The notes beneath the pieces are model-generated. The model had not been told where the DNA came from and ran no database searches. It saw only the letters and a program-made list of their open reading frames with translations. The position numbers were made by a program, and so were the translations under genes. Positions 10,006 through 29,186 of a DNA stretch of 64,000 bases are shown one piece after another. The stretch is from positions 31,672-95,671 of the forward strand of contig JAMCWA010000070.1 in the NCBI GenBank assembly GCA_023475165.1, written 5' to 3'. The first letter of the stretch is position 1. The number at the start of each line of letters is the position of its first letter. The stretch is from Bacillota bacterium. GTDB lineage: Bacteria; Bacillota; Sulfobacillia; JAMCWA01.

Positions 10006-10070
10006 GGACCAGTCACCTACCTCTATGCCGCCAAAACTACCTTCTTCCGGGTAATCCCCCCGCCGCGGGT

Positions 10071-11165: not shown

Positions 11166-14100
11166 TTTACCTCCTCCTTCTGTACATTTTTTGACGCCAG
11201 TTGAACCAGCTCTTCCCTGATCTCGCGCAAAGCCCTATCCCAGTCGGCTACGTCGTCCGCTGCGTAAATGTCGATACTTCCCCCCTGAACGTTTTCCACC
11301 GGCTGGCTTTCCTCCATCATGCCCTCCAGATCAAGGTAGGCTTCCTTCAGTGCCGCCAGAGTCTCGGGATCAGGTTTCCAGATCCCCCTTTCGGCTGCTT
11401 CCAGCATCCGGCGGGCGATTTCCTCCAGCGCCCAGGGATTGCTTTCTTCAAAGAAGCGCCGATTCTCTTCGTTCAGGACAAAAGTCTGGGTAATGTCGGT
11501 AAAAACCCACTGTTCTACGGCTCCCGTGGTGGCTCCCCAACCGAATACCCGGCCCACTCTTTTGGCGATGTCTCCGGCTCCCTTATAACCGTGGGCTTTC
11601 ATTCCTTCGATCCACTTGGGATTAAGCAAGCGTGTGCGCACCACCCGGTTGATCTCGGCGCTCAAGCTGACCACGCGGGGGTGGGCGGGGTTGCGGCTGT
11701 CGCCGTGGTAAGTCCGCACCTCTTGTCCCGAGAGGACCCGGGCGGCGGCGGTAAGGCCACCATATTGACCAAAATGGGCGCAGCAACCCAAAAGATCATG
11801 CTCGTCACTGCCGTTATTCTTATAGGTAAGGGTAACGGTCTTCAATTGCTCCAGCAAGGCGCGCACCAGGGGGCGCCCGTCCAGACCGTCGCCATAAGCG
11901 AAGCTGTCATGTTGGAGGAAGACTTCGGCTAAATCCTGCTCGCGCCGCCAGGCACTGGCATAAACGGCCAGGTTGACTCCGTTACCATAAGTACCCGGGC
12001 GGGCGGAAAAGAGGCGGGCGGTGGCCAGCCGCCAGCGGGGGGAGGCTGGCCCCTGGGGTTCTTGCTGTAAGGCATGGCGGCGAATGAAGTTGTCGTCCTC
12101 CCGCTCCTCCAGACGGGCCACCAGCTGCACGGCCTGATCAAAAAGTTGGACCAGGTTGGGGAAGGTATCCCTGATGATACCCGAAAAACGTACAGTGACA
12201 TCGATGCGGGGACGACCCAGTTCGGCAAGGGAGAGCGGGGATACTCCCGTTACCCGGCCATCTTCATCCCAGAGGGGCCGTACTCCCAACAGGTAAAACA
12301 TCTGGGCCAATTGTTCACCCTGCGTCCACATGACATCGGAGGCAAACCAGATTAGACCGACGTTTTCCGGCCAGTGCCCGCTCTCCGCCAAGTAACGCTC
12401 CAGGAGGGCGTCGGCCAGCTTTTTGCCCACCTCCCAAGCGGCCGGAGAAGGGATCTGCCGCGGATCCAAAGAATAGAAGTTACGGCCAGTGGGTAAGACC
12501 TCCAGGGCTCCCCGGGAAGGGAGACCGGAGGGGCCGGCCTCGATATAGCCACCATCCAGCCCGGTAAAAAAGCTGTCGATTTCCTGCCGGGAAAGGAGGA
12601 TCCGTTGCGCGACGTCCAGGATCGCGGGGACGATCTGGGCCAGGCTGGCGGGCGGAAGGGAGGCCGTGGTGGCCAGTTCGGCCAGCGCATTTTCGTCTTC
12701 CGCTGCTTCCGGGTGGGCCAGGACCTGGGCGACGAGGTGCCTGGCGGCGGTGTGGGCTTCGTCCAACAGGGTGGAATAACTTGTTTTTCGACCCGGTGGT
12801 TTTTCACCGGGGTGGGCTAGGGCTTCGGCATAGTTAAGCCCCCAAGCCGAGAAGAAGAGGTGGGGCAAGCCCTTTTTTTGACCGCGGTCCAGCCGCAAAA
12901 AGGACGTCACTGTCTCCACCAGCTCCGTCCCGGTTGGAGTTTCCCCGAAAATGTGGAGCCCAAGGTTGGTCAGGCTATCTCTGGTCCTGGTGATGACCTC
13001 GTGCGCCCGCTTGACCACCTCTTCCATGGTCTCCTGCTCCAGGGGGACCTCCCCCGTCAGGTTGGCTTCCCTGATTTCCTCCTGGATGAGGTGGGCGAGG
13101 GCTTCTCGGCGGGCTGTATCCCCTTCGTCCAGCTGGGAGTATTCGTCCAGGTAACGGCTCAGGGTGTCCAGGTGACCGTAATTCCCGGCTTGAGCCAGAG
13201 CCGGGACATTGTGGTCGATCAAAGTGGCGTAGGAACGCCTCTTAGCGATGGTTCCTTCGGCTGGGTTATCGACCACATAGAGGTAAAGATGAGGTAAAGC
13301 GCCCAGGGCCAGATCGGGATAATCTTCTCCCGACAAACCCACCGACTTTCCCGGCAGAAATTCCAGATTGCCGTGGGTGCCGACGTGGATGATGACGTGA
13401 GTGCCGCGGACCCGCTCCTGGAACCAATAGCTGGCCAAATACTGGTGGGTCGGCGGCACGGCGGGATCGTGGAGGATTTTGCAGACCGTTCCATCGCAAC
13501 GGGCTCCGGCACAACCGCGCTTCGGTTGGACCATAATCATGGTCTTTCCAAAAGCGATTCCGGTGAGGACGATTTTGTTTTGGTAGACCATGGCTTGCCC
13601 TGGCGGCTCGCCCCAAGCGCTTTTAATCCTCTCCTGGACGGGAGCGGGCAGCTCGGCAAACCAGCGGGAATAAGTTTCCGCCTCCAGCAGGGCATAGGCC
13701 CCACCTTTTTCCACGATCTCCTGGACTGAGGTCCAACGGAATTCGGACACCGCTTTCCGCGTCATGATGAGGTCGATGAGTTCGCGCCCGTTCCGCGGGG
13801 GCTGGCCCACGTCATAGCCACGTCGGGCCATTTCCTGCAGGAGACGGGCGACGCTTTCCAGGGTATCGAGCCGGGCACCGCCGCCCACCGCTGCCTCGAC
13901 GCCGGCACAGGGGTTATTGTGGAGGACGAATGTTACCTTCCGCTCCTGGGGCGGGGTCCGTTTTAGCCGGGCCCAGGCCAGGATTCGCCTCGCCGCGTGG
14001 TGAACACGGTCGGGGATGGGCACATAACGTTCGGCGGTGATTCCGGTGTCCGGATCATAATTGCGCTCGGTGGCTCCTACCACCAGGGGTTCAATGATAC

Positions 14101-15034
14101 CGTCAAATTCGGGCATCCCTACGGCCCAGGCCACACTGGACCCCAGACCATGGTCATCTTTGAGCCACTGGGCCGGCGTTCGGCCGCTGACGACGATGGC
14201 TTTTAAGATGGGGACGTTAAGCTGCCGCAAAAGGGCCACGTTTTCAGCCTTGAGGCCGGCTAGAACGTTCCTTTGGGCGCCTGCAAAAAGGTGGGGCGAC
14301 TGTAGGTCCACCAAAACGTGGATGAGCGGATGACCGTCCGGAGTGAGGAAGAAGTGTCTGATGACCCTGGCGTTGTCCCAGCCCCCAGCCTCCACGGCCG
14401 TCATCCCGGCCGAAAAGACGGGTACGGCTGCCGCTCCGCTTTTTTCCAGCTCTCGGATCAGGGCCTCGACCACCCCCAGATTTTCCTGGACCCAGTTAGC
14501 CCGGTAAAAGAGAAGGCCGATGACGTACTTGCTTTGGTGCCTGTACCAGCTGAAATAAGAAGCGAGGTCGGGAAAGACGGATGGGGCTTCGGGGTGATAA
14601 ATCCCCTGCCAGGGGAGAGGGTCGGGTGGTTCGTATGTAATCTCCTCCCGGCCGCCGAGATGGGCCAGAAAGCGGAACATATTTATCAGGTTCTTTTTGC
14701 CGCCATAAAGGAAGTAGCGGTGGAGGGTTTCTTGCTGAGCGACGGGAAAAGTCGAATAAGCCCACTCCGCCGGATTATTGGTCAGGATACCCACTTTGAG
14801 TTGCTGCCGGATTTTTTGCCAGTTAGGGAAGAGGGTTTCCCAGGCTTCCTCCCCCCGGGAATAAACCAGAAGGATCTGGGCTTCCTCGAGGAAAGAAGTG
14901 AATGCAGCGCGTTTTTCTAGCAGCTCCTGGCGCGTCACGAAGAAGGGCTCAACAAAGTCCAGTGCTTGGACGGCAGCGCGGAGGGCGTGCAATTGGGTCC
15001 CCCAAAAAAGGCCGGCCACTTTCAATCGTTCCAA
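11162..15034 (-). CDS. cobN: CobN/BchH-family chelatase large subunit
   Basis: 1290 aa with HVGTHGNLEFLPGK, AKRR, LPTGRNFYS, LGRPRIDV, LNPKWIEGMKAHGYKGA, NPWAL. Confidence 0.93.
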   Translation of the reverse strand: MERLKVAGLFWGTQLHALRAAVQALDFVEPFFVTRQELLEKRAAFTSFLEEAQILLVYSRGEEAWETLFPNWQKIRQQLKVGILTNNPAEWAYSTFPVAQQETLHRYFLYGGKKNLINMFRFLAHLGGREEITYEPPDPLPWQGIYHPEAPSVFPDLASYFSWYRHQSKYVIGLLFYRANWVQENLGVVEALIRELEKSGAAAVPVFSAGMTAVEAGGWDNARVIRHFFLTPDGHPLIHVLVDLQSPHLFAGAQRNVLAGLKAENVALLRQLNVPILKAIVVSGRTPAQWLKDDHGLGSSVAWAVGMPEFDGIIEPLVVGATERNYDPDTGITAERYVPIPDRVHHAARRILAWARLKRTPPQERKVTFVLHNNPCAGVEAAVGGGARLDTLESVARLLQEMARRGYDVGQPPRNGRELIDLIMTRKAVSEFRWTSVQEIVEKGGAYALLEAETYSRWFAELPAPVQERIKSAWGEPPGQAMVYQNKIVLTGIAFGKTMIMVQPKRGCAGARCDGTVCKILHDPAVPPTHQYLASYWFQERVRGTHVIIHVGTHGNLEFLPGKSVGLSGEDYPDLALGALPHLYLYVVDNPAEGTIAKRRSYATLIDHNVPALAQAGNYGHLDTLSRYLDEYSQLDEGDTARREALAHLIQEEIREANLTGEVPLEQETMEEVVKRAHEVITRTRDSLTNLGLHIFGETPTGTELVETVTSFLRLDRGQKKGLPHLFFSAWGLNYAEALAHPGEKPPGRKTSYSTLLDEAHTAARHLVAQVLAHPEAAEDENALAELATTASLPPASLAQIVPAILDVAQRILLSRQEIDSFFTGLDGGYIEAGPSGLPSRGALEVLPTGRNFYSLDPRQIPSPAAWEVGKKLADALLERYLAESGHWPENVGLIWFASDVMWTQGEQLAQMFYLLGVRPLWDEDGRVTGVSPLSLAELGRPRIDVTVRFSGIIRDTFPNLVQLFDQAVQLVARLEEREDDNFIRRHALQQEPQGPASPRWRLATARLFSARPGTYGNGVNLAVYASAWRREQDLAEVFLQHDSFAYGDGLDGRPLVRALLEQLKTVTLTYKNNGSDEHDLLGCCAHFGQYGGLTAAARVLSGQEVRTYHGDSRNPAHPRVVSLSAEINRVVRTRLLNPKWIEGMKAHGYKGAGDIAKRVGRVFGWGATTGAVEQWVFTDITQTFVLNEENRRFFEESNPWALEEIARRMLEAAERGIWKPDPETLAALKEAYLDLEGMMEESQPVENVQGGSIDIYAADDVADWDRALREIREELVQLASKNVQKEEVK

Positions 15035-15209: not shown

Positions 15210-15239
15210 ATTATATTACGAAAGGGGAAAACCTGTCAA
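15210..15239 (-). promoter_or_regulatory. sigmaA-type promoter of the cobN operon
   Basis: Exact TTGACA-N18-TATAAT on the minus strand. Confidence 0.8.
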
Positions 15240-15277
15240 CAGGTGGGCGGGAATTTTGAGCAAGGATCCCCGGTACC

Positions 15278-15510
15278 TTATGGTGGGCTGCTGGGAGGGC
15301 AAGATGGGCTAAACACTCTTCCAGGTCCTCTTTCAGGCAGGCGATGGCGCTCGGGTAGTGGTCCTGGTAGCGGTCCACCAAGATCTGGGCCAGACGCCGG
15401 GCTTCCTTCTTGTCCTGGGCCGCGAATATCTTACTGATCTCGCCCTTGAGGATTTTTGGGGCCGACTTGAGCGCCTTGGCCAGCATGTTGCGCATCTTAT
15501 GCACCGTTCC
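15278..15510 (-). mobile_element. IS256-family transposase internal fragment
   Basis: VHKMRNMLAK...IFAAQDKKEARR...RYQDHYPSAIACLKEDLEECLAHLALPAAH matches the IS256/Mutator C-terminal half; no start or ends. Confidence 0.75.
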
Positions 15511-15744
15511 GGTAGCCTTGCCAGCTACGTTCCCCGCGCTGGAGGTGTTCCCGGCCAAGGAACTCCGTCACTTCTTCTTCGATGGCCACCTGAAGCCAAT
15601 TCAAAAATCTGTCTTGGGGAGGAAGACACAGGGGTGGTTAACTTTTCGATTGCCATTTACAGGAAGAGGAGTTTTCGCTTAAATGATGTAGTATAAATAA
15701 AAGGTCCTTTAAATCATTGGAGCTTCTAGCAGGAGGGGTTTTTG

Positions 15745-16346: not shown

Positions 16347-17552
16347 ATGTTTACCATAAGGGTCTTACATTTCAATAGTTTTGAAGAGGCGGAAGCCGAA
16401 ATCTTTTTGATGACCGGTGACCGCCCGGAGGCCGCCAGGCTGGCCCGTGCGGTTTATCCGGCCTCCCTTAAACTTGACGTAATTCCCAAAGCGGTGGCCG
16501 ACGCTGTAAATACGGCCTGGACCAGTCAGGGAGGTAAAGTGTTATCCGGGGAATTCGGCCTGCCTGCAGGAACCAGTGACCTTTTCCTGGATGGAAATCT
16601 TGCCAAATGGACGGAACTGGTCCGGCGTTTGCAAGAATCGGCAGAGGACCTTGGTAATCCCGAAATTAGAACTCTGGGAGTCGAACTAAAAGAGGTCTTG
16701 CAAAACTACGAGGGCAAGAAAAGTTATGCTATAAACTGCCGGGGACGAAGCTTAACCGTTGGCCGCCGGACTTTAATTATGGGCATATTGAATGTTACCC
16801 CAGATTCCTTTTCTGACGGGGGACGCTGGACCGATATCGATGCAGCTCTCGATCATGCCCAACGGATGATTGAAGATGGCGCTGATATCATCGATGTCGG
16901 TGGCGAATCGACTCGTCCCGGTCATATTCCCGTAAGCCTGGATGAAGAACTCAGGCGGGTTCTGCCCGTTGTCGAGCGGCTGGCCAGTAGTGTCGAGGTC
17001 CCTATTTCGGTGGATACCTCAAAAGCTCAGGTGGCCAGACGCGCTCTGGAAGCTGGGGCCCATATCATCAACGACGTCTGGGGCCTTCACGCGGATCCTG
17101 AAATGGCCGAAGTCGCAGCCCGCTTCGCTGCGCCGGTAATTATAATGCATAATAAGGACAAGCCGCTTTATAGATCCTTGATGGCCGAGATTAGTCTGTA
17201 TTTTAAGGAGACTGTATCTCTGGCCGAGAAAGCTGGTGTCAAAAGGGAGAAGATCATTCTCGATCCCGGACTCGGATTTGCCAAGAATGCTGAACATAAC
17301 CTGGAAGTGACCAGAAGGTTACGGGAACTGGCTGGCTTGGGATTTCCCATCTTGATCGGACCTTCACGCAAGAATACCATTGGCAAAGTCCTCAACATGC
17401 CGGTGGACCAGCGCGTCGAAGGAACTGCCGCCATGGTAGCGGCGGGTATTATCAACGGCGCTGACATCATCCGGGTTCATGATGTCAAGGAAATGACCCG
17501 GGTGGCGCGCATGACCGACGCCATCAGGAGGGGGTTGGCTTCAAGTGTATGA
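16347..17552 (+). CDS. folP: Dihydropteroate synthase with N-terminal extension
   Basis: IMGILNVTPDSFSDGG, GGESTRPG, DPGLGF, SRK, RVHDV. Confidence 0.96.
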   Translation: MFTIRVLHFNSFEEAEAEIFLMTGDRPEAARLARAVYPASLKLDVIPKAVADAVNTAWTSQGGKVLSGEFGLPAGTSDLFLDGNLAKWTELVRRLQESAEDLGNPEIRTLGVELKEVLQNYEGKKSYAINCRGRSLTVGRRTLIMGILNVTPDSFSDGGRWTDIDAALDHAQRMIEDGADIIDVGGESTRPGHIPVSLDEELRRVLPVVERLASSVEVPISVDTSKAQVARRALEAGAHIINDVWGLHADPEMAEVAARFAAPVIIMHNKDKPLYRSLMAEISLYFKETVSLAEKAGVKREKIILDPGLGFAKNAEHNLEVTRRLRELAGLGFPILIGPSRKNTIGKVLNMPVDQRVEGTAAMVAAGIINGADIIRVHDVKEMTRVARMTDAIRRGLASSV

Positions 17553-17910: not shown

Positions 17911-18416
17911 TGCTAAGGGCTTTTTTAGGTCTGGGCTCCAACCTGGGGAATCGCCTGGAATACCTTCAGCGCGCCCTTGGTTTACTGGAACAGTCCCCTG
18001 AAGTGCAGGTGATTCGCATTTCTTCGGTCTACGAAACAGAACCGGTCGGATTTACCGAGCAGGGCAAGTTTTATAACGCCGTGGCTGAGATCAAAACCAG
18101 CCTGCCTCCGCGCGTTCTCCTGAAACTCATCCTGGATATCGAGTTACGCCTGGGGCGCATGAGAACCCGCTCCTGGGGTCCCAGAACCATTGACCTCGAC
18201 ATCTTGCTCTATGGTGAGGAGGTGATCCAAGAACCGGATATGATCATCCCTCATCCACGGATGGTGGAAAGGGCTTTTGTCCTCATCCCCTTACTGGAGA
18301 TTTGGCCGGAGGCCCACCTGCCGAGTGGGGAAAAGTTGGCGGATATCAGCCTAGATCGGGAACAATCCAGAGGGATAACTAAAGTCTATGAGCCGACCTG
18401 GTATCCGAAAAGATGA
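17910..18416 (+). CDS. folK: 2-amino-4-hydroxy-6-hydroxymethyldihydropteridine diphosphokinase
   Basis: LGLGSNLG, SSVYETEP, WGPRTIDLDILLY, PHPRMVERAFVL. Confidence 0.96.
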   Translation: MLRAFLGLGSNLGNRLEYLQRALGLLEQSPEVQVIRISSVYETEPVGFTEQGKFYNAVAEIKTSLPPRVLLKLILDIELRLGRMRTRSWGPRTIDLDILLYGEEVIQEPDMIIPHPRMVERAFVLIPLLEIWPEAHLPSGEKLADISLDREQSRGITKVYEPTWYPKR

Positions 18417-18551
18417 AGTACGCTGACCGTCCCCCGAATAGAAAACCCGGGCCTGCTTCAGAAAAGCCCGAACAAGGCTAATTCTTGTCCAGCCCGCCTT
18501 CCCCTGACCGGGCTTTCGCTCTTTTCGGATTAGATTTGCCTGCTCCAGATG

Positions 18552-18665
18552 GGGTAAGCTTAGCGACAGGTAGGCCTTGGCCCAGGTAGTTTCGGCTAGC
18601 CTTTCGCGTGCCCTTCAACATAGAGGGTAAGCTTCCCGAAGGCAGGGCCTTGGCCCCGGGAGTCT
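18552..18665. repeat. Two degenerate ~40-bp direct repeats between convergent folK and the 18685 gene
   Basis: gggtaagcttagcgacaggtaggccttggcccaggtagt versus gggtaagcttcccgaaggcagggccttggccccgggagt, about 73 bp apart. Confidence 0.6.
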
Positions 18666-18684
18666 CACCCGGAAGCTATTTGGC

Positions 18685-19302
18685 TTATGCCAGCTGGCTC
18701 AGTATTTCTGCAGCTCGCTGTGGGTTGAAGACGCCACAGAGGCATTGCCGCGCCAACTCCTGACCGGCTTCCTCGGCGGTGCGCCGGCCGTTTTCGATCT
18801 CCCGGACCAAACGTCGAATAAGATTAAAAGAGACCATCCCGTGCCCACACATGGTGGAAATCTCCAGGATCGGTTTTTCCGGCAAGAGCTTCCTGGCCCC
18901 GTGGACGCCCAAAGAATACTCAATGGTATGCCGGGTTAACCCCGCGTTCCGGCAGGATTCATTGACCCGGTCGAAAAGCCCGGATACGACGATGGAGATA
19001 CCGGTATCAGCTTCCTTTAAGTCACGAAGAACCTCCACCAGGGTCTTTTCATCTCGATAAACGGCATGAACCACCGTGCCGTCCTCGGTATCGGCAATGA
19101 CATAATCCCGACCCGGGTTATACATATTGCCGCGCTTGATGTCGCCAAAATTCACCGGGTTATGTTTAAAAAAGATCTCCTTGATGGTCTGCAATTTTGC
19201 TCCCGACCCTTGACTATTGAAACCGCGGGCCGGTATGGCCAGGACGGTGTAATTGCGGGCCAGGCTCTTCACGGTTCCCTGTCGATGCAAAGTATGGGTC
19301 AT
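18685..19302 (-). CDS. Hypothetical Cys-motif protein (MTHTLHR...MCGHGMVS...CLCGVFNP)
   Basis: Well-formed 205-aa ORF with RBS, co-directional with the upstream Fe-S gene; CGHG and CxCG motifs suggest metal or Fe-S binding. Confidence 0.8.
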   Translation of the reverse strand: MTHTLHRQGTVKSLARNYTVLAIPARGFNSQGSGAKLQTIKEIFFKHNPVNFGDIKRGNMYNPGRDYVIADTEDGTVVHAVYRDEKTLVEVLRDLKEADTGISIVVSGLFDRVNESCRNAGLTRHTIEYSLGVHGARKLLPEKPILEISTMCGHGMVSFNLIRRLVREIENGRRTAEEAGQELARQCLCGVFNPQRAAEILSQLA

Positions 19303-19529
19303 GTCCTCGTCACTCCTGCGATTTTATTGGATAGAAGAATTGGTGAATCGAAATAAGGTTTCTATTGCCGCAATTCCACTGGTCACGATCGCTGCTTTGG
19401 TGGACGTTCCACGCCGCGGAGATTGGTTAGAGCGTCTTTTCTTCTTTTTTGTTGAGCGTTTTTCCCGTTAAAGCCGGAGCAATTATCGGCAGACTGTCGT
19501 CCTCCTCTCGTCGATTTATGTGGCTTTTC

Positions 19530-20237
19530 TCAGTTGTGCCGCGGTCTTCCCAAACCAACGTTGGTCTTGCCGTTTAAGGAAAGGGAAAAGGGGAGGGACA
19601 TTCCCTCAACGGGGGAAGAACCGTCCTCCCGACAGCGGACGGCCAGATCGACGCTGAAAACGGTTTTAATAGCGGGGGCCAGTTCCTGGAGGCGTTCCAG
19701 AATTCGCGGAACCAGGGGTAATTCTACCGCGAACTCGACAATGGCCGAGAGGACCTTCAAATCGTGTATTTCGGAAGGTAGAGCGCCGGTTTTCGGGTCG
19801 GTCATCAAGGCGGTGACCGGGTTTTGCGCCTCGAATTCGACTCCAAACTCGGCCATGGCCCGGGCGACCTTTTCCACTTCACGAAAACGGGTACCGATGC
19901 CGGGACGACCGAGTTCGATGGCAATACCAGCGTAGCCCGGTGGAAAGCGCCCCGTTATTTCGTTAGTTTTCATTTCTTCCGTCCCCCGCCCCGGTATCTC
20001 GGTAGAGGGGTGGGTGGAAGCGGGATCGGAGAAAAACCAGGCCAGCGTCCTGGGGTAAGAAAGAGGCGGGCGGTAAAAAGCATCGGTGGGACAGCATTGG
20101 GCTCGCAGGCAGACGCTGCACTCCACGCATTCGGCCTGATCGATTTTGGCCACGTCTCCGTCAAGAGCGATGGCGTTCATTGGACAATAATCAAGACAAT
20201 TGCCACACCCGATACACTTGGATTCATCGATGAGCAT
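19530..20237 (-). CDS. 2x[4Fe-4S] ferredoxin-domain protein with uncharacterised C-terminal domain
   Basis: CIGCGNCLDYCP and CVECSVCLRAQCCP, followed by about 180 aa including GRGTEEMKTNEITGRF and ELGRPGIG. Confidence 0.88.
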   Translation of the reverse strand: MLIDESKCIGCGNCLDYCPMNAIALDGDVAKIDQAECVECSVCLRAQCCPTDAFYRPPLSYPRTLAWFFSDPASTHPSTEIPGRGTEEMKTNEITGRFPPGYAGIAIELGRPGIGTRFREVEKVARAMAEFGVEFEAQNPVTALMTDPKTGALPSEIHDLKVLSAIVEFAVELPLVPRILERLQELAPAIKTVFSVDLAVRCREDGSSPVEGMSLPFSLSLNGKTNVGLGRPRHN

Positions 20238-20470
20238 AACCGCACCTCACAGGGCCAAGTTTTTAAAAACCGTTCTCCTTAAAAGCGTGGATCCACCCCA
20301 TGCAGGGATCCACCACAAACAAGAACCAGCCCCTAGCCAGAAAAAGTGCCACCCTGGGCGGCGGACCACACTTTTCCGCAGGGTAAGGGCCAAAAGCGCG
20401 TCACCCGATGGTGCCCGGCCGCTCCCTGGCGCATTCTTGGAAAGAGGCGTCTCTGGCGCCAGTTATTGTT

Positions 20471-22255
20471 TCACCAGATGGTGGCCCCGGCCACCGCTCC
20501 CTGGCGTCGAGGGTCGGCGGCCCCTTGGCAGAGACCGGTCGTCGGATTTCTGGCCACGGCCTGAACGGCTCCGAACCAGGGCGAACATGAACTGCGCAAA
20601 ATAGGCTTATGTCCTAGGGCCCGGAGAACATCTTGAGCTTCTTCCGGCATATCACCTTCCAATTCCAATTCCTCCCCCGACCAGTGAAGGCGGGGCAAAT
20701 TTACCGCGTGCTGTAAGCCCAAACCATGATCCAGAACATGGACTAAGGTTTGAGCGATGGCATTGATGATCCTGGTGCCGGAAGGACTGCCCAGGGCCAG
20801 AACGGACTTTCCCTCGTGGAGGACCATGGTGGGACAGGGGGCGGTGGCGGGGCGTTTATGAGGAGCTACGGAATTATAGCGGCCCGGCCGGGGGTCAAAG
20901 AGCTTCATGGCATTGTTCAAGAAGAAACCATAACCGGGAACCATCATGGCCGAGCCGAAGGCATCCCCAAGACTTTGCGTCAGGCTGACGAAATTACCCC
21001 AGCGGTCGACGTGAGAATGGTGCGTCGTATGGCTCTCCCCCATAGAGTTTAACCCTTTACCTTCAGGTGAGAGAGTGTCAGATTTGGCGCCATCGCTGCT
21101 TCCTGCATGCTGACGTTGCTGACGTCCCTCACTGTCGATAGACGTCTTTCCATCATACGCCCAGGGATTGCCCGGCGGCACGGGAATTGCTACAGGTTGT
21201 TCCCGCTGAATTAACTTCCGCCGCTCCGCCGCATAGTCTTTGTCCAGTAATCCCCTGACCGGTACCGGTACAAATCCCGGATCGCCGGCATAGGCTAGGC
21301 GGTCGGCAAAGGCGAACTTCGTGGCCTCAACGACCAGGTGGAGCTTTTCGCCGGATAGGGGGTCATATCGCTTCAGCGGAAAGCCCTCGAGGATATTGAG
21401 GAGGTTCAAAAGGACGACGCTTGACGAGGGAGGGGTGGCCTGAATGGTGTAACCGCGATACTCAATGCTCTCCGGTGCCAAAACCCGGAATCTCTCCGCG
21501 GGATAAGCCGCCAGGTCCTCCAGGGTTAGGATACCCCCGGCCCCGCGCACGGTTCGGACCATGGCTTGAGCGATTTCACCCTGATAGAAAACCTCCATTC
21601 CACCGGAGGCGATGAGTTCCGACGTTTTGGCCAATTCTTCCTGAATTATTACCTCACCGGCTTGACGGGGCGAGCCATCGGCCCTCAAGAAAAGCCTGGC
21701 CGCGGGAGAGAACCGGGCCAGGCGATCACGGTTTTCGGCTACAAAAGCCGCCATCCGCCCATTCAAAGGAACTCCCCTTCGGGCCAGCCTGATGGCCGGT
21801 TCTAAGATCTCTTCAAGAGGCAATGTCGCCCAACGGCGATGGAGATAGAGCCAGCCGGCCACGTTGCCGGGTACGGCGACGGCCAGAGCTCCAGTGGTGT
21901 TGGCATCCCCTTTCGTCCAAAAGCGGTACCCTCCTTGGGTGGGACTAGGTACCCACTCGTAAAGGTCGTCATGAGCTTCCGCCGGAGCAGTGGCATAAAA
22001 GTCAAGAGCCACTGTTTTACCTTCACTGGCCATGTAAACCAGGGCGTTCCCTTGACCGCCCAGATGCGACATGGCTGGTTCACAAACTACCAGGGCGAAG
22101 GCTGTAGCCAGGGCGGCGTCTACGGCATTGCCGCCCCGCAACAGCATCTCGACCCCAGCGGCCGTGGCTAGAGGATGGGACGAGCTGGAAAGACCGCCCA
22201 ATGAAACCACATCATGTATACCCCCGGAGACCTGAGCAAACATTAACCGCTTCAT
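20471..22255 (-). CDS. ggt: Gamma-glutamyltransferase family Ntn-hydrolase, no signal peptide
   Basis: GGNAVDAALA, VAVPG, AFADR, autocleavage site HTTHHSHVD..GN, GFFLNN, GSPSG, ADPRR. Confidence 0.92.
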   Translation of the reverse strand: MKRLMFAQVSGGIHDVVSLGGLSSSSHPLATAAGVEMLLRGGNAVDAALATAFALVVCEPAMSHLGGQGNALVYMASEGKTVALDFYATAPAEAHDDLYEWVPSPTQGGYRFWTKGDANTTGALAVAVPGNVAGWLYLHRRWATLPLEEILEPAIRLARRGVPLNGRMAAFVAENRDRLARFSPAARLFLRADGSPRQAGEVIIQEELAKTSELIASGGMEVFYQGEIAQAMVRTVRGAGGILTLEDLAAYPAERFRVLAPESIEYRGYTIQATPPSSSVVLLNLLNILEGFPLKRYDPLSGEKLHLVVEATKFAFADRLAYAGDPGFVPVPVRGLLDKDYAAERRKLIQREQPVAIPVPPGNPWAYDGKTSIDSEGRQQRQHAGSSDGAKSDTLSPEGKGLNSMGESHTTHHSHVDRWGNFVSLTQSLGDAFGSAMMVPGYGFFLNNAMKLFDPRPGRYNSVAPHKRPATAPCPTMVLHEGKSVLALGSPSGTRIINAIAQTLVHVLDHGLGLQHAVNLPRLHWSGEELELEGDMPEEAQDVLRALGHKPILRSSCSPWFGAVQAVARNPTTGLCQGAADPRRQGAVAGATIW

Positions 22256-22380
22256 CTCCTTATCTGCTTCACCCCGGAAATACCCGGTGTCTTCCAGAGG
22301 CCATAGCCTGCGCTGGTGCCAGCTGGCCGCGCTGCCCTGCCCCTACGCGGAGAATACTACTGCGACCTCGTCGCCCCGCA

Positions 22381-23628
22381 TTAACCGATCAATTCCCCTA
22401 TGGTCAGGGCATACGCTTTGGTGGATTTCACCAGGTCCTCGATGGCTATATGCTCGTCGATACTGTGGTGAAAATCTAAATAGCCATAGCCAAACATGAC
22501 GATGGGTATTTTCTGCTCATTGACAAACCAACCCAGACCAGTGAGCGAAGGGGCTCCGGTATACTGCGGCTCTACACCGTCCACGGCTAAAGCGGCCCGC
22601 TTTAAAGCGGGGATCACCGGCATATCTTCTGAAACACGGGTTTGTGGGCGTTCCTCCAGAATCTCGGCTTCGATTTCTACCTGCCCCTTTTTGGATTGTA
22701 AGTCTTTTATGATATTAAAAATGGCCTCCCGTTCCTCATCCGGATCCTCCAGCAGGTTAATCCGGCGGTAGACTTTGAAACTTATTTCGTCCGGCATACC
22801 GACAAGAGGAGACGGGGCGTATTCCACCCCTTGAAAATGCATTCGCGAGGGTCCGGTTAAGGGGCAGACCCTTTTTCTGACCTTCTCCGCATGTTCATTC
22901 AAGAGCTGGAGAAGCCCGAGAGCGTTATCCAGAGCCGTCGGTCGCCCCGGGGGGTACATCAGGTTGCGGCGGGGCGGCCGGGTCCCACGCACCGTTATCT
23001 TAAAAACTTGGGCCCCCATGGCCGCGCCGATGATATTGCTGGGCCCAAACATGGGGAAATTAGCCTTGCTTTCTGGACTTATCTGGGTGGTACAACCGTA
23101 AAGGCCAAAATCGGCCGAAAAAGCGTTCACCTTGACCAGATGGCGCATTCCCTGACGGCCGCCTCTTTCTTCATCAGAATCGAAGACATAGACCAGACTA
23201 CCTTTCGGGGCGAAACCGGCTGCCCGTAGGGCACGAAGAGCCATCAGGAAGGCGGCAATGGATCCTTTGTGATCGCACGTGCCCCGACCCCATATCTTAC
23301 CATCTTTCACTTCTCCCCCGAAGGGATCAACGCTCCAGGCTGTCTCGTCCCCGGGCCCCACCGTATCCATGTGGGCATAGCAAAGCATTCGGGGCGATCC
23401 CACCGAACCGGGGAAAGTAGCCACCAAGTTGGGCCGCGATGCTTCTACCGGAAAATTTCTAACCTCAAACCCGAGGGCCTCTAATTCAGGCCAAATTATC
23501 TGGGCCACTCGCTCTTCATTCCCATGAACGCTTTTTGCCCGGACCAGTCGCTGCAACAACTGGACCAGCTCTTCTTGGTGTTCAGCAATGTATTGCAAGG
23601 CTTGCTCCGCAATGCGATTAGTCACCAT
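22381..23628 (-). CDS. M20 family metallo-amidohydrolase (ArgE/DapE-like)
   Basis: AHMDTV, GRGTCDHKG, DEERGG, HHSIDE. Confidence 0.9.
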   Translation of the reverse strand: MVTNRIAEQALQYIAEHQEELVQLLQRLVRAKSVHGNEERVAQIIWPELEALGFEVRNFPVEASRPNLVATFPGSVGSPRMLCYAHMDTVGPGDETAWSVDPFGGEVKDGKIWGRGTCDHKGSIAAFLMALRALRAAGFAPKGSLVYVFDSDEERGGRQGMRHLVKVNAFSADFGLYGCTTQISPESKANFPMFGPSNIIGAAMGAQVFKITVRGTRPPRRNLMYPPGRPTALDNALGLLQLLNEHAEKVRKRVCPLTGPSRMHFQGVEYAPSPLVGMPDEISFKVYRRINLLEDPDEEREAIFNIIKDLQSKKGQVEIEAEILEERPQTRVSEDMPVIPALKRAALAVDGVEPQYTGAPSLTGLGWFVNEQKIPIVMFGYGYLDFHHSIDEHIAIEDLVKSTKAYALTIGELIG

Positions 23629-23644
23629 GGTCTTTACCCCTTTC

Positions 23645-24469
23645 TCAGGTCTTTAGCTTCGGATCCAAAAGGTCCCGCAGGCCGTCTCCCAAAAGGTTAA
23701 AACCCAAGACCGCCAGTAAAATGGCCGTTCCGGCGAAAGTCGCAATCCACGGGGCGATGTCTAAGTACTGCTTCCCGTCATTGATAATCGAACCCCACGT
23801 TGGGGTCGGCGGTTGAACCCCCAAGCCCAAGAAGCTCAAAGATGCCTCCGAGAGAATGGCCCCGGCGATTCCCGTGGAGGCCATGACGATAATTGGGGAA
23901 AGAATGTTAGGCAAAATGTGTTGCCGAAGTATTCGCTTATTGGTGGCTCCGATGCCCCGAGCCGCCTCTACGAAGGCTTTCTCCCGGAGCGCGAGAACGG
24001 ACCCACGGGTCACGCGGGTGAAGCGAGGTATACTCGTGATACCAACGGCAATCATCACGTTGGTCAGGGAAGGACCGAGGATGGCCATGATCGCCAGGGC
24101 CAAGAGGATGGAAGGAAAGGCCATCAAAACATCGGTGACTCGCCCAATCAACATATCTATCCAGCCCAAGTAGTATCCGGCCATAATCCCCAAAAAGCTG
24201 CCAACCACCAGGCCGATGGCCACAGAAATCAAACCGACCAAAAGAGAGATCCGTGAACCATAGATAATCCGGCTCCAAAGGTCGCGGCCAAAGTCGTCGG
24301 TGCCCAATAAATGACCTTGGGTACCCGGCGGTAAGAGGCGTTGGGCGAGGCTTTGCCTGGTCGGATCGATGGGGGCCAAATAGGGAGCAAATACGGCGGT
24401 AAAGACAATCAACAGGACGATCGCGCCGCCGGTCAGGATTAACGGATTCCGCCAGAAGCGTCTCTTCAT
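23645..24469 (-). CDS. Dipeptide/oligopeptide ABC permease (DppC/GsiD-like)
   Basis: HLLGTDDFGRDLWSRIIYGSR, EAA loop, HILPN, NLLGDGLRD. Confidence 0.93.
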   Translation of the reverse strand: MKRRFWRNPLILTGGAIVLLIVFTAVFAPYLAPIDPTRQSLAQRLLPPGTQGHLLGTDDFGRDLWSRIIYGSRISLLVGLISVAIGLVVGSFLGIMAGYYLGWIDMLIGRVTDVLMAFPSILLALAIMAILGPSLTNVMIAVGITSIPRFTRVTRGSVLALREKAFVEAARGIGATNKRILRQHILPNILSPIIVMASTGIAGAILSEASLSFLGLGVQPPTPTWGSIINDGKQYLDIAPWIATFAGTAILLAVLGFNLLGDGLRDLLDPKLKT

Positions 24470-24478
24470 AGCGGCACC

Positions 24479-25420
24479 TCAACTCAGACGTACTTGGGGA
24501 TCGAGCAGGGCGTAAATTAAATCGGTCAACAGGTTGACCAAAACAAAGGATGTGGCCACAAAGAAGGTCACACCTTGGACAACGGGATAATCCCGCGCCA
24601 GGATGGCATCAACCAGAAGCTTCCCCAGCCCCGGCCGGGCAAAAACGGTTTCCACCAGAACCGCACCACCCAGAAGATAACCAATATTGAGTCCAACGAT
24701 GGTGACGATGGGGATGGCGGCGTTGCGAAGAGCGTGCTTGTAAAGGACGATCTTTTCCGAAAGACCTTTTGCCCGGGCCGTACGAACGTAGTCTTCCCGC
24801 AAGACCTCCAGCATGGAAGAACGGGTCATCCGGGCGATGAGGGCCATGGTGGAAAAGCCAAGGGTAAAAGCGGGCAGAACCAGGGCCTCGAACATGGAAA
24901 AGAGGTCACCGGGCTTCCCTGCCCCTATGGCCGGGAGCCAATGCAGGCGAATGGCAAACAACATACTCAAGAGCAAACCAACCCAAAAGACGGGAGCCGC
25001 AATGCCGGTCATACTCAAGACCAGGCTTACCAGGTCGAGCAAGCTCCCGCGCCTGGTGGCCGCGACTATACCCAGCGGTATGCCGAAAAGGACGGCGATA
25101 AACACACCGGCGGCCGCCAGAAGAAAGGTGTGGGGAAAACGGTCGCTTATTTCTTCCGCCACCGGCCGCCGGGTTCTTATGGAGTTTCCTAGTTCTCCGC
25201 GCAGGTACCTTTCGACAAAACTCACGAATTGGAGGGGAAGGGGGCGGTCCAAACCAAGTTCATGGCGGACCGCCACCACTTGTTCCGGGGTTGCCATGTC
25301 GCCCAGCATCGCCACCACGGGATCACCGGGGATGAGGTGTAAAGCGATAAATACGGCTACCATTACCCCCAGGAGAGTCGGGATGGTCGCCAGGAGGCGC
25401 CGGACGACAAACTGGAACAT
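24479..25420 (-). CDS. Dipeptide/oligopeptide ABC permease (DppB/GsiC-like)
   Basis: LIPGDP, GLDRPL, DYVRTARAKGL, HALRNA, RDYPVVQG. Confidence 0.93.
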   Translation of the reverse strand: MFQFVVRRLLATIPTLLGVMVAVFIALHLIPGDPVVAMLGDMATPEQVVAVRHELGLDRPLPLQFVSFVERYLRGELGNSIRTRRPVAEEISDRFPHTFLLAAAGVFIAVLFGIPLGIVAATRRGSLLDLVSLVLSMTGIAAPVFWVGLLLSMLFAIRLHWLPAIGAGKPGDLFSMFEALVLPAFTLGFSTMALIARMTRSSMLEVLREDYVRTARAKGLSEKIVLYKHALRNAAIPIVTIVGLNIGYLLGGAVLVETVFARPGLGKLLVDAILARDYPVVQGVTFFVATSFVLVNLLTDLIYALLDPQVRLS

Positions 25421-27004
25421 TTATTTCTCCCCCTCGACGGTAACGTTATCGAGGCGAATGCTCCGTTGCGGATCTCCGACAAAACCCTTGACGTACTTTT
25501 TCATCGCGTAGATGTGGTTTTCGTGATCCAGGAAGTAGTAGTAGTCTTCCTGAACAATTCGTTGCTGGACCTTGCCGAACAATTCTTGCCGCTTGGCCTG
25601 GTCAAGGGTGCTGGTGGCCTCGTCTAACCACTGGTTAACCTCGGGAATATCGATATTGGCCCAGTTGTCGGCGGGAATGCCCTTTTTGCTGAACCAGGTG
25701 AAAAGGACCCGGTCCGGGGTGGCGTCCTGGCCCCGACTGAGCATAAACATCGGCAGCTGGGCTTTCCTCAGCTCGGCCAGGAATGACTGGGTCTCCATGA
25801 CCTTGATCTCCAGGTCAATGCCGATGGCTTTCAGGTTCTCCTTGATCACCGTTGCCGGTTTGGTAAAACGGTCAATATTGGGAACATAAAGGGTGGTCTT
25901 GAACCCGTTGGGCAATCCAGCCTGAGCTAACAACTCTTTAGCCTTCTTCGGATCATATTTCGGCTGGAAAATACCCTTGAGGGCGAACTCTACATCCGGA
26001 GAGAGGATGCCGGTGGCCGGAGTAGACATCCCTTTAAAGACGTTATTCAAGATCCCGTCCCGGTCAACGGCGGCTATAACGGCCTGACGTACCAGCTTAT
26101 TGTCAAAGGGTTTGATGGCACCGTTCATTCCGAAAAAGCGCGTTATGAGGCCCGGTTTTTCGTCGATGATGATATTGGGATCTTTTTTATATTTGGCCAG
26201 TTTATCTGGATCCGTGACCTGGATCATGTCGACGTTGCCGGCTTCAAAGGCATTGTACATGGTGGTGGCGTCAGGAATCGGAATATAGACCACTCTATCC
26301 AGCCCTGGTTTTCCCCGAAAATAATCGGGATTGGCCACGTAGGTGGTGGATTGTTGGGGGTTCCACTGCTCAAACATGTAGGGGCCGGTTCCTATGGGTT
26401 GTTGACCATATTTGGCCCCCCGTTCTTTGACGGCCTTTTCGCTGACAATGTAGCCGACAGAACCGGCTAACTTATCCAAAAAGGCGGGATCGGGTTTGGA
26501 AAGGAAAATCTTCACCGTGTAGTCGTCGACGACCTGGATGTTTTTAATGGCTGCCAGAAGTTTACCCGGTGCGGACTTCAGCTCCGGATCTTTCAGGCGG
26601 TCGAAGGTAAACTTGACGTCGGTGGCTTTCAGCTCCCCGTAACCACGGTGGAACTTAACCCCCTTCCGTAGATAAAACGTCCATTCCAATCCATCCTTGG
26701 AGGTCTCCCATTTTTCGGCGAGGTCGGGCTCGATCTTGACCGTTCCCAATTGATAGCGGACCAAGCCATTGTAGAGATTCGAAGACATCTGCTTGTCGGT
26801 GACTGACGTTAGGAGCGCTGGATCGAGGGTCCCCAAGTCGTACTGCATGGCAATGCGCAGTTCCTTCTTCGGGGTTCCCTTTCCCGAGCCCTGGCCAGCA
26901 TTTCCGCCTGCCGAAGGGCCTGTGCCCTTTACCCCGCAGCCGGCGAGAAGCCCGATAACCAGCGCTATGACGACTAGCAACGAAAGAAAACGATTCTTGG
27001 GCAT
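25421..27004 (-). CDS. Family 5 (peptide/nickel) ABC substrate-binding lipoprotein
   Basis: Lipobox LLAGC, LAEKWETSKDGLEWTFYLRKGVKFH, PIGTGPY, VRQA. Confidence 0.93.
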   Translation of the reverse strand: MPKNRFLSLLVVIALVIGLLAGCGVKGTGPSAGGNAGQGSGKGTPKKELRIAMQYDLGTLDPALLTSVTDKQMSSNLYNGLVRYQLGTVKIEPDLAEKWETSKDGLEWTFYLRKGVKFHRGYGELKATDVKFTFDRLKDPELKSAPGKLLAAIKNIQVVDDYTVKIFLSKPDPAFLDKLAGSVGYIVSEKAVKERGAKYGQQPIGTGPYMFEQWNPQQSTTYVANPDYFRGKPGLDRVVYIPIPDATTMYNAFEAGNVDMIQVTDPDKLAKYKKDPNIIIDEKPGLITRFFGMNGAIKPFDNKLVRQAVIAAVDRDGILNNVFKGMSTPATGILSPDVEFALKGIFQPKYDPKKAKELLAQAGLPNGFKTTLYVPNIDRFTKPATVIKENLKAIGIDLEIKVMETQSFLAELRKAQLPMFMLSRGQDATPDRVLFTWFSKKGIPADNWANIDIPEVNQWLDEATSTLDQAKRQELFGKVQQRIVQEDYYYFLDHENHIYAMKKYVKGFVGDPQRSIRLDNVTVEGEK

Positions 27005-29155: not shown

Positions 29156-29186
29156 CCGGGGAGATTGCGCTGGGAGATGATTAACG

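Follow-up and report, generated by a model that had tools for sequence, protein, structure and literature searches.

A conserved gene pair encoding a ferredoxin-domain protein and a Cys/His-rich partner: a candidate Fe-S enzyme family of anaerobes

RESULTS

The A-B locus in the window

The window (the whole stretch of DNA analysed, 64,000 nucleotides) carries on its minus strand two open reading frames, here called genes A and B. Gene A (19530-20237) encodes a ferredoxin-domain subunit of 235 amino acids (AF2 pLDDT 87), and gene B (18685-19302) encodes a Cys/His-rich partner subunit of 205 amino acids (AF2 pLDDT 90). Each starts with an ATG behind a Shine-Dalgarno-like GAGG/AGGAG element. The positions, strand and sequence motifs given for the two genes in a preliminary description of this DNA were all recovered. 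Upstream, on the same strand, Pfam identified a GntR/FCD regulator (27139-27852), an SBP_bac_5 protein (25421-27004), two permeases (23645-24469 and 24479-25420), an M20 peptidase (22381-23628) and GGT (20471-22255), so that the co-direction with A-B first described was borne out; these genes are the context of A-B and not its conserved partners.

A 233-nt spacer (20238-20470, minus strand) with terminator-like hairpins at 20348-20362 and 20326-20340 separates ggt from A, and a 227-nt spacer (19303-19529, minus strand), which is an outlier for the family, separates A from B. A further terminator-like hairpin from the consensus scan lies 3' of B (18468-18492, minus strand), and folK, convergent to B, ends at 18416; the terminator scan was weak, with 7 sites found versus 5.3 ± 2.2 expected. 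The A-B spacer breaks the translational coupling usual in the family, and with the two spacers and the terminator-like hairpin, A-B may or may not be co-transcribed with ggt. A riboswitch or other structured RNA in the long spacers was rejected, as Rfam gave no match between 15000 and 29000 at E values up to 1 and the folding z scores were −0.56 for the ggt-A spacer and +1.92 for the A-B spacer. Neither the window nor any of the 79 loci surveyed below gave a second copy of the A-B spacer, and an origin from a repeat or a mobile element was likewise rejected. A scan of 18300-22500 for sigma-70-like promoters gave 0 sites and was uninformative.

Gene A joins a ferredoxin domain to a domain without a family

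Residues 1 to 55 of A (20073-20237, minus strand) form a 2x[4Fe-4S] clostridial-type ferredoxin domain recognized by the Pfam Fer4 models. PF00037 matched with an E value of 2.5e-9 and 37 bits (cut-off 21.1), PF12838 and PF13237 also scored above their cut-offs, and 26 of 27 aligned A members matched the Fer4 clan, in each case through this region only. The eight cysteines of the two CxxCxxCxxxC(P)-type cluster motifs (C8, C11, C14 and C18; C37, C40, C43 and C49) are each kept at ≥94% among 206 A sequences, 204 of which have the domain. In Foldseek, the domain resembled clostridial-type ferredoxins and ferredoxin domains (e.g., PDB 1fdn and those at the N terminus of [FeFe]-hydrogenases) with an rmsd of 1.6 to 2.0 Å over 56 columns; the eight conserved cysteines are a further shared feature. 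This likeness covers only a quarter of A, however, and nothing in those ferredoxins corresponds to the remaining 180 residues or to any part of B.

The remaining domain, residues 56 to 235 (19530-20072, minus strand), had no Pfam, NCBIfam or PDB match, in agreement with the original account of a 2x[4Fe-4S] protein with a long unknown C-terminal domain. A sequence search returned 2177 relatives of this domain. It contains GRGTEEMKTN (residues 83 to 92, 19962-19991) and ELGRPG (residues 108 to 113), and the invariant positions comprise G83-R-G-T-E-E-x-K-T91, E108-x-G-R-P112 and a K224..G228 tail; such 100%-invariant polar and charged motifs are of a kind typical of a binding pocket. The PDB and Foldseek matches of A fell in the ferredoxin part, and the C-terminal domain gave only weak ACT/McrD/DUF77-like hits at E values of 8e-3 or worse, the best being McrD (8e-3) and ACT domains (about 0.03). 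DUF362 (PF04015), the NCBI name on A homologues P0175, P0190 and P0218, was rejected, since 0 of 27 members matched it at E values up to 10. The ESM Atlas yielded nothing beyond clusters labelled "hypothetical" or "4Fe-4S binding."

Gene B carries an invariant Cys/His set

The N terminus of B reads MTHTLHR, with HTLH at residues 3 to 6 (19285-19296); MCGHG lies at residues 151 to 155 (18838-18852) and CLCG at residues 187 to 190 (18733-18744). Among 226 B sequences, C152, H154, C187 and C189 are 100% conserved, R7 is conserved at 99%, H6 and H125 at 96%, and H3 at 93%. From this conservation, the Cys3His set is a putative metal site, accompanied by the near-invariant H3, H6, R7 and H125. B has 1845 relatives and 898 representative clusters (50% identity); the genome scan confirmed 571 relatives, a figure to be read as at least 571, and a tblastn search of a plasmid collection with B gave no match.

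B had no Pfam or NCBIfam match and no PDB sequence match, and Foldseek against the PDB found nothing at an E value of 1e-3 or better, the best weak hits being PII and PH1503 (E value of 0.077, TM 0.26). Of A and B together, only the ferredoxin domain was thus well matched by Foldseek, and the expectation that the pair does not correspond to a characterized enzyme held across Pfam, NCBIfam, Foldseek and the PDB. In the AF2 models, the N-terminal half of B and the C-terminal domain of A may both have a generic ferredoxin-like, PII/ACT-like topology: their secondary-structure order fits beta-alpha-beta-beta-alpha-beta, and the structural matches to such folds are weak; hhalign gave no evidence of paralogy between the two novel domains (probability 0.9%, E value of 0.059). 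The C terminus of B matched winged-helix Pfam families at chance level (FeoC in 5 of 26 members, best E value of 0.044).

Several named candidates were discarded. The AdoMet/arginine decarboxylase-like label (the JGI name of B homologue P0019) was matched by 0 of 26 B members at E values up to 10. A CCG-domain Fe-S protein (HdrB, GlcF or LutA; CxnCCGxmCxxC) was rejected because neither A nor B matched PF02754, which was absent from 26 B members at E values up to 10; the B motifs are C-G-H-G and C-x-C-G. SDH_alpha/beta, Fumerase/Fumerase_C (class-I fumarase/TtdAB) and Aconitase gave no Pfam, NCBIfam, PDB-sequence or Foldseek match (E value of 1e-3), and the AcnX family gave no sequence or fold match.

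A and B recur as a pair and are predicted to form a complex

The preliminary description took the two proteins for a recurring hypothetical pair in anaerobes, and the relatives of B and of the A C-terminal domain, together with the gene-neighbourhood survey, bear this out. In 79 loci, kept from the 80 best of the 571 B matches and hence biased to close relatives of the query alignment, A lies directly upstream of B for 86 of 95 B genes. Given this and the wide recurrence, A and B are, by sequence comparison, conserved genes and not chance ORFs. In the 85 pairs other than that of the window, the A-B gap has a median of 0 nt and a maximum of 92, with 82 of the 85 at ≤30 nt. Fusions occur in both orders, A-B (P0241 and P0246) and B-A (P0248 and P0249). 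The identities of A and B co-vary (r = 0.86 over 83 pairs), up to three tandem diverged pairs occur in one locus, and where a locus has several pairs, the nearest relatives of B and of A were themselves partners in 10 of 15 cases. The evidence strongly supports joint inheritance and duplication of the two genes, with occasional fusion.

Complex modelling of A with B scored 0.95, versus 0.00 for the best control; 116 of 157 solved complexes reach the 0.95 mark, as do 2 of 215 mismatched pairs. The runs agreed in ≥87% of contacts, with partner pLDDT values of ≥92, and since no similar complex has been solved, the score does not reflect a memorized structure. The predicted heterodimer has one large interface that takes in the invariant A C-terminal tail, the GRGTEEMKTN and ELGRPG loops, parts of the A cluster loops, the B N terminus and the B Cys/His segments. 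With adjacency, fusion, co-divergence and a predicted interface all found in silico, A and B very probably form a heteromer. The earlier proposal of a heterodimeric metalloenzyme is supported as regards the heteromer and the invariant Cys/His residues.

The hosts of A-B are anaerobic bacteria and some archaea, and homologues occur in cultured organisms, e.g., Gelria sp. Kuro-4 and Sutterella. The anaerobes covered by the new-class reading discussed below range from Bacillota, Chloroflexota, Thermodesulfobacteriota, Nitrospirota and Sutterellaceae to Bathyarchaeia and Asgard archaea. In the text open to literature searches, the motifs MTHTLHR, GRGTEEMKTN and TMCGHG returned no paper and keywords returned no description of the pair; passages of PMC13056359 (CODH genomic context) and PMC13101534 (benzene cluster) do not mention the pair.

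Neighbourhoods point to carboxylate uptake and redox modules

The genes around A-B differ between loci, most of them encoding carboxylate transporters, redox modules like AOR or CODH, or hydroxy- or oxo-acid enzymes; these assignments come from crude gene calling, with each neighbour cluster named from one representative, and 16 of the 79 loci are shorter than 8 kb. TRAP or TTT transporters were found in 25 of the 79 loci and PrpR, GntR or CitAB-like regulators in 30. AFOR, Prismane, Fer4_11 or Pyr_redox_2 genes were present in 27 loci (Fer4_11, 13; AFOR, 13; Prismane, 12; Pyr_redox_2, 13), leaving 52 with none of the four, and in four clusters B is fused to an AorA-like Fer4_11 polyferredoxin. 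Hydroxy-acid genes around A-B include those for LarA, Ldh_2, PdxA, MR_MLE, glycerate kinases, HpcH aldolase and OadA. Four operons (L072, L069, L076 and L003) consist of A, B and transporter genes only; all 16 of their intergenic gaps are ≤82 nt and 13 are ≤32 nt, and the L072 operon is flanked on both sides by opposite-strand genes.

GGT was found beside A-B in 0 of the 79 loci, and an M20 gene of the window type likewise in 0. The window A-B pair is not a conserved partner of GGT, and the view of it as a member of a GGT/M20-linked operon was not supported by these counts or by the 233-nt gap with its terminator-like hairpin. An M20, M42 or amidohydrolase gene was near A-B in the window and in L001, L005, L018 and L062, with the order M20-PdxA-A in L062. 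Of the neighbours that are enzymes, regulators or SBP5 proteins, the M20 protein of L062 alone reached an NCBIfam cut-off, with a subfamily model named "hypothetical protein," and 6 of 11 TRAP binding proteins reached generic DctP-subfamily models only. With names generic or absent, no substrate can be read from the neighbours or the binding proteins.

On the B tree, context labels cluster, with 32 changes versus 66.1 in shuffled data (0 of 200 shuffles as low), which partly reflects taxonomy, as relatives share labels. The window copy and L001 are sisters on this tree (SH-aLRT 98). Its closest relatives, P0001 and P0121, are 89 to 95% identical, and L001 (74% identity) is the only close relative with context: an M20-A-B-ADH arrangement beside a divergent GntR-Opp set, with GntR, DppB and DppC types common to the window and L001. 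GsiB was the best NCBIfam match of both SBP5 proteins, far under the cut-off (222 and 303 versus 594 bits). Given the M20-A-B-ADH arrangement beside GntR-Opp in L001, a peptide- or amino-acid-derived substrate is possible for the window subfamily (n = 2).

DISCUSSION

We tentatively propose, with a confidence that falls a little short of even, that A and B are subunits of a heteromeric, ferredoxin-wired family of Fe-S enzymes with subfamily-specific small-acid substrates. The Cys3His set of B would bind a third metal centre, for which an Fe-S cluster that has a single special ligand position is the likeliest candidate, and the two clusters of A would wire this centre to an external ferredoxin or polyferredoxin. 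A small carboxylate would bind in a composite pocket lined by the invariant Arg, Glu, Lys, Thr and Asn residues of A, and would there undergo a ferredoxin-linked redox step, which may be a reduction or reductive elimination, or such a reaction run backwards. Subfamilies would differ in substrate; for the window copy, whose small subfamily lies beside GntR, transporters of the Dpp/Opp type and M20 peptidases, this may be an amino-acid- or peptide-derived acid. The near-universal ferredoxin domain of A, the B-Fer4_11 fusions and the loci with redox families count for the redox role, and the transporter loci and the operons of only A, B and transporter genes count for catalysis on imported acids. 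Against this proposal, the Cys3His set could equally bind structural Zn, no homology to an enzyme of known mechanism was found, the context is heterogeneous, and the generic ferredoxin-like/ACT-like topology is commoner in ligand-binding and regulatory modules than in catalytic ones.

Known systems offer partial parallels. Oxidoreductases of the AorABC and CooS-CooF-FNOR types consist of a polyferredoxin, a catalytic subunit and an FAD/NAD(P) subunit. A-B often lies inside or beside such sets, and in four clusters B is fused to a Fer4_11 polyferredoxin, but the pair belongs to neither the AFOR nor the Prismane/CODH family and in most loci has none of them nearby. IspG and IspH are ferredoxin-fed [4Fe-4S] enzymes with a substrate-binding iron, and the CCG-domain and FTR types are Cys-rich disulfide reductases. 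These serve as a working analogy for electrons passing from ferredoxin to a special Fe-S site and on to a small substrate, B being Cys-rich with CGHG and CxCG motifs, but no homology was detected and the spacing of the B motifs is different.

In enzymes of the aconitase and serine dehydratase types, the free iron of a [4Fe-4S] cluster binds the substrate acid, and A-B might by analogy be a non-redox hydro-lyase (a dehydratase, deaminase or desulfidase), an unlikely though credible alternative. Three B cysteines would hold the cluster, its free iron would bind a hydroxy-, amino- or thiol-acid, and the ferredoxin domain would only keep the cluster reduced or repaired. The three 100%-conserved cysteines and one histidine of B and the two-subunit architecture speak for it. 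So do contexts rich in hydroxy-acid genes, the minimal operons, in which one conversion must feed central metabolism, and the M20, M42 and amidohydrolase neighbours, which would release amino acids. The two-subunit Fe-S hydro-lyases of anaerobes (L-serine dehydratase alpha/beta, TtdAB and class-I fumarase) share with A-B two small subunits, a probable three-Cys cluster site and an organic-acid context, and the serine dehydratase beta part has an ACT-like fold, as A-B may have. There is, however, no sequence or fold match to any of these enzymes, to aconitase or to AcnX; the two-subunit hydro-lyases have no fused two-cluster ferredoxin domain, and its permanent presence in A, together with the B-polyferredoxin fusions, would be unexpected for a purely non-redox lyase. 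It is distinctly improbable that A-B instead converts no metabolite and acts as an electron-transfer adapter coupling neighbouring oxidoreductases (AOR-type, CODH/HCP-like or GlcDEF-like) to the ferredoxin pool or another carrier. The fusions to Fer4_11 polyferredoxin and the presence of Fer4_11-Prismane-Pyr_redox_2 or AFOR genes directly beside A-B or on both sides of it (12 to 13 of 79 loci each) would fit such a role, but the minimal operons hold no oxidoreductase to serve, 52 loci have none of the four redox families, and the invariant polar and charged motifs of the A C-terminal domain are typical of a binding pocket.

The substrate part of the first proposal, in which the enzyme acts on the product of GGT and M20, for example by cleaving a C-S bond or by thiol redox chemistry, with cysteine, Cys-Gly or a glutathione derivative as substrate, found no support in the survey and now appears very improbable. 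The co-direction with GntR-dppABC-M20-ggt in the window, the M20 genes of L001 and L062 and the sub-threshold GsiB matches would agree with it; the absence of GGT and window-type M20 from the 79 loci and the ggt-A gap with its hairpin do not, most of the family is found near carboxylate transporters and genes of acid metabolism, and no sequence feature points specifically to sulfur chemistry. We hold it to be just as improbable that A-B is a sensing or maturation module in which two ACT-like domains would bind a metabolite or metal and either signal its presence or hand it on, e.g., for cofactor insertion into neighbouring metalloenzymes. The PII/ACT-like topology, the weak Foldseek hits to PII, ACT, McrD and DUF77, the winged-helix hits of the B C terminus and the frequency of metalloenzymes (AFOR, CODH-like and LarA) among the neighbours hint at such a module, but every one of the fold and Pfam hints is under significance, dedicated regulators are already present in 30 of the 79 loci, tandem diverged pairs fit substrate diversification better, and the minimal transporter operons have no metalloenzyme to mature.

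Beyond the ferredoxin-wired enzyme family preferred here, a more specific reading, which we regard as doubtful, is that A-B is the first member of a new class of ferredoxin-dependent Fe-S enzymes whose heterodimeric architecture has not been seen before. A cluster ligated by the Cys3His set would be clamped between two interdigitated ferredoxin-like domains where the subunits meet, and with this one enzyme anaerobes would, in a single step, reduce imported small carboxylic or amino acids or cleave them reductively. If true, a widespread route, or sink for electrons, would so far have gone unrecognized in the anaerobic turnover of carbon.

For annotation, adjacency alone is insufficient ground to place A-B in a glutathione or gamma-glutamyl pathway. 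The family is large, old and unannotated, with about 900 clusters at 50% identity and at least 571 genome matches spread over many phyla of anaerobes, some archaea among them, and neither B nor three quarters of A has a Pfam, NCBIfam or PDB counterpart. A-B occurs in substrate-inducible operons for organic-acid uptake, where it often looks like the sole catalytic function. New Fe-S chemistry could emerge from its reaction, and knowing that reaction would close a gap that recurs whenever metabolism is reconstructed for Dehalococcoidia, syntrophs, Clostridia and gut Sutterellaceae.

Genes A and B of the window

The gene for the ferredoxin-domain protein, here called A (19530-20237), and that for its Cys/His-rich partner, B (18685-19302), lie on the minus strand as open reading frames of 235 aa and 205 aa, respectively. 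Each starts with ATG preceded by a Shine-Dalgarno-like sequence. The two reading frames and the motifs quoted for them in the preliminary description were confirmed, the motifs lying where it had placed them. Fer4 Pfam models matched A residues 1 to 55 (e.g., PF00037, E value of 2.5e-9), and neither A residues 56 to 235 (the C-domain) nor B had any match in Pfam or NCBIfam. Upstream of A on the same strand are genes for a GntR/FCD regulator, an SBP_bac_5 binding protein (SBP5), two permeases, an M20 peptidase, and gamma-glutamyltransferase (GGT), and downstream of B lies a convergent folE-folP-folB-folK cluster. The SBP5 and permease genes are followed directly by those for M20 and GGT (22381-27004, minus strand), in a row without an ATPase gene.

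Distribution and pairing of A and B

Searches yielded 1,845 relatives of B at an E value of 0.001 or better (2,267 candidates) and 2,177 relatives of the A C-domain (2,499 candidates), and when 1.84 billion representatives were searched with a profile, 898 clusters reached an E value of 1e-3 and 260 reached 1e-30. The source-given names were all "hypothetical" or "4Fe-4S binding." A genome scan confirmed at least 571 B relatives, and 79 loci from the 80 best were retained. Their sources included Bacillota, Chloroflexota (Dehalococcoidia and Anaerolineae), Thermodesulfobacteriota and other "delta" lineages, Nitrospirota, Acidobacteriota, Spirochaetaceae, Acetomicrobium, Sutterellaceae (Sutterella, Dakarella, and Mesosutterella), and two archaeal MAGs (Bathyarchaeota and Borrarchaeum).

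These loci held 95 B genes, 86 of which had a full A immediately upstream; the others were at contig ends (four), had only a partial A match (one, L033), formed a second B directly after an A-B pair (three, in L016, L038, and L063), or had no A (one, L030). The neighborhood survey thus bore out the earlier suggestion of a recurring pair, which is both conserved and widespread. Three A-B pairs each were present in L027, L035, and L047, and A-B-B in L016, L038, and L063; such tandem diverged pairs (two or three) or extra B copies, seen in some Chloroflexota and "delta" genomes, suggest paralogue expansion of the family.

The gap between the A stop and the B start had a median of 0 nt, was at most 30 nt in 82 of 85 pairs, and reached a maximum of 92 nt. 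The A-rich 227-nt spacer of the window (19303-19529) is far beyond this range, and the translational coupling usual in the family is broken by it. The spacer sequence is unique, a search of the window and the 79 loci for a second copy finding none, matched no Rfam family, and was unstructured on folding.

Conserved residues and predicted folds

Among 226 B sequences, G135, C152, G153, H154, C187, C189, and N193 were 100% conserved, and R7 (99%), H6 and H125 (96% each), and H3 (93%) were near-invariant; C117 (69%) and H79 (59%) were not universal. The N terminus MTHTLHR was present in 75 of the 95 locus genes, the others deviating at one position. Among 206 A sequences, all eight ferredoxin cysteines were at least 94% conserved, only two sequences lacked the ferredoxin motifs, and G83-R-G-T-E-E, K90, T91, T95, G110-R-P112, E168, and K224 were 100% conserved. 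Since the C-domain of A had no conserved cysteine in this set, any third metal site must be in B, whose conserved Cys3His set could, judging from the sequence, ligate an Fe-S cluster or Zn.

AF2 models had a pLDDT of 90 for B and 87 for A, with low confidence precisely at the invariant N terminus of B and at the invariant loop (residues ~80 to 100) and tail of A. Foldseek gave no match in the PDB at an E value of 1e-3 or better for A or B; the ferredoxin domain of A was the only part matched well, and the remaining matches were weak ferredoxin-like folds (PII, ACT, McrD, and DUF77). Profile-profile comparison gave no evidence of a common origin of A and B (probability of 0.9%).

Predicted complex of A and B

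Among the homologous clusters, fusions were found in the order A-B (P0241 and P0246) and B-A (P0248 and P0249, with merely 38 to 39% identity to the window B), and in four clusters (P0242 to P0245, 375 to 383 aa) B was C-terminally fused to an AorA-like Fer4_11 polyferredoxin. Two further, odd fusions, each seen once, join a truncated B to an AMP-binding domain (P0247) or a PEP-mutase/ICL domain (P0250) and may be artefacts of assembly. Across 83 pairs, the pairwise identities of A correlated with those of B (Pearson, 0.86; Spearman, 0.60). In the six loci with two or three pairs, the partner of the nearest B was also the nearest A in 10 of 15 cases, showing that pairs duplicate and diverge as units.

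In complex prediction, the best of the three controls scored 0.00 and A-B 0.95, a value attained by 116 of the 157 solved complexes and by 2 of the 215 mismatched pairs. At least 87% of contacts agreed between runs, with a partner pLDDT of at least 92. As PDB profile searches found no solved relative of B or the A C-domain, the score cannot stem from a memorised like complex. The predicted interface (269 to 280 contacts) comprises, in A, the invariant tail (217 to 232), the GRGTEEMKTN loop (84 and 87 to 95), the ELGRPG loop (106 to 114), and portions of both ferredoxin cluster loops (15 to 21 and 40 to 47) and, in B, the N terminus (2 to 7), residues 99 to 137, the H154 segment (154 to 161), and the C187/C189 segment (185 to 189). 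The elements with low confidence in the single AF2 models enter this interface. The modeling supports A and B acting as one protein complex.

Genomic context of the pair

Neighbor genes were called crudely as ORFs and clustered by single linkage, one representative per cluster being named by Pfam; counts cover ~8 kb, and 16 of the 79 loci are shorter than 8 kb. The most frequent neighbors were PrpR-type sigma-54 activators (15 of 79 loci), followed by AFOR, Fer4_11 polyferredoxin, Pyr_redox_2, and DctP/DctM (13 each), Prismane/CODH-like proteins and TctA (12 each), Zn-ADH (11), GntR/FCD (10), TPP enzyme and CitA-like kinase (8 each), and CoA-transferase III and LarA (5 each). A TRAP or TTT transporter was found in 25 of 79 loci and any of five transporter types in 36. 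Recurrent orders were Fer4_11-Prismane-A-B-Pyr_redox_2 or A-B-Fer4_11-Prismane-Pyr_redox_2-ADH; TPP-A-B-CoA-transferase; A-B-LarA-Hyi-like-GlcD-GlcD-GlcF-glycerate kinase; GntR-A-B-AFOR-ThiS-PCC-Liv transporter; NlpA-A-B-PEP mutase/ICL (Sutterellaceae); and A-B-TctCBA or DctPQM-A-B. The genes of the L072 operon, A-B-TctC-TctB-TctA, are separated by 1, 21, 13, and 9 nt, and the operon lies between a CitA-like two-component system, which is divergent, and a GntR gene, which is convergent; operons in L069, L076, and L003 resemble it.

The short (~480 aa) Prismane/CODH-like protein matched the CooS model in part (165 bits; cut-off of 478) and, with Fer4_11, Pyr_redox_2, Zn-ADH, and a PrpR-type activator, forms a conserved set around A-B (L053, L056, L061, and L071; L043, L048, L067, L073, and L078) that is itself an uncharacterised module.

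Context labels on the B tree required 32 changes, compared with a shuffled mean of 66.1 (0 of 200 shuffles as low), which fits subfamilies that differ in partner or substrate, although related copies carry the same labels. The window B was sister only to that of L001 (74% identity; SH-aLRT, 98), where M20 (455 aa)-A-B-Zn-ADH is divergent from GntR-SBP5-OppB-OppC-ATPase and GntR, DppB, and DppC are 46 to 50% identical to their window counterparts. L001 has one ATPase gene, compared with none in the Dpp/Opp-type row of the window. The orders M20-PdxA-A (L062) and FdrA-AllG-M42-amidohydrolase-A-B (L005 and L018) were also seen. From two genomes, it is possible that the window subfamily is tied to peptide/amide hydrolases and Opp/Dpp transporters.

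Other genes of the window

The dihydropteroate synthase of the folate cluster (16347-17552, plus strand; Pterin_bind at residues 145 to 378) has a 144-aa N-terminal extension without a Pfam match. In two Dehalococcoidia loci (L006 and L060), A-B has folP and folK nearby as well, probably by coincidence. At 7957-15034 (minus strand) lies a chelatase cluster for cobalt or another metal, made up of a CobN/Mg-chelatase large subunit (1,290 aa), a Peripla_BP_2 binding protein, and an AAA+-VWA protein resembling ChlI/ChlD (682 aa). Between it and the folate genes, a 115-aa ORF (15211-15558, minus strand) matches only positions 249 to 331 of PF00872, the model for Mutator-family transposases (379 positions; E value of 1.2e-8), and is probably a transposase fragment. 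The genes divergent beside the GntR-dpp cluster (28112-31091, plus strand) encode a dehydrogenase (Ldh_2), another GntR/FCD regulator, and a dehydratase of the enolase superfamily (MR_MLE); elsewhere, A-B is directly adjoined by Ldh_2 (L045 and L077) or MR_MLE (L052 and L070).

Possible function of the A-B pair

The almost universal retention of the ferredoxin domain, the B-polyferredoxin fusions, and the frequent redox neighbors point to a redox character for A-B; set beside these, a non-redox Fe-S hydro-lyase, which would likewise convert a substrate, seems unlikely. The fusions and the redox neighbors would also suit a pure electron-transfer adapter, which we regard as less probable still, and a sensor or maturation module is a long shot; A-B being the sole non-transport function in the L072-like operons argues instead for a substrate-converting enzyme. 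The preliminary description had proposed a thiol or C-S enzyme specific for the products of GGT and the M20 hydrolase. Such an enzyme would suit the hydrolase neighbors of the window subfamily, but the link was not borne out, the GGT and M20 of the window being found by tblastn in 0 of the 79 loci. The 233-nt gap between ggt and A holds terminator-like hairpins followed by T-runs, weak evidence because the scan total was near expectation (7 versus 5.3 ± 2.2). We give this proposal very little credence.

B and the A C-domain are covered by no curated family or solved structure, and a motif and keyword search of the literature found no published description of the pair. It is doubtful that A-B represents a categorically new enzyme class, and we have filed it under the ferredoxin-wired Fe-S enzymes of anaerobes. 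Our tentative reading is a heterodimeric Fe-S enzyme in which a third center, bound by the Cys3His set of B and placed at a composite pocket lined with invariant polar residues of A, would be wired through the two clusters of A to an external ferredoxin or polyferredoxin. The enzyme would act on small carboxylates, with substrates that differ by subfamily.
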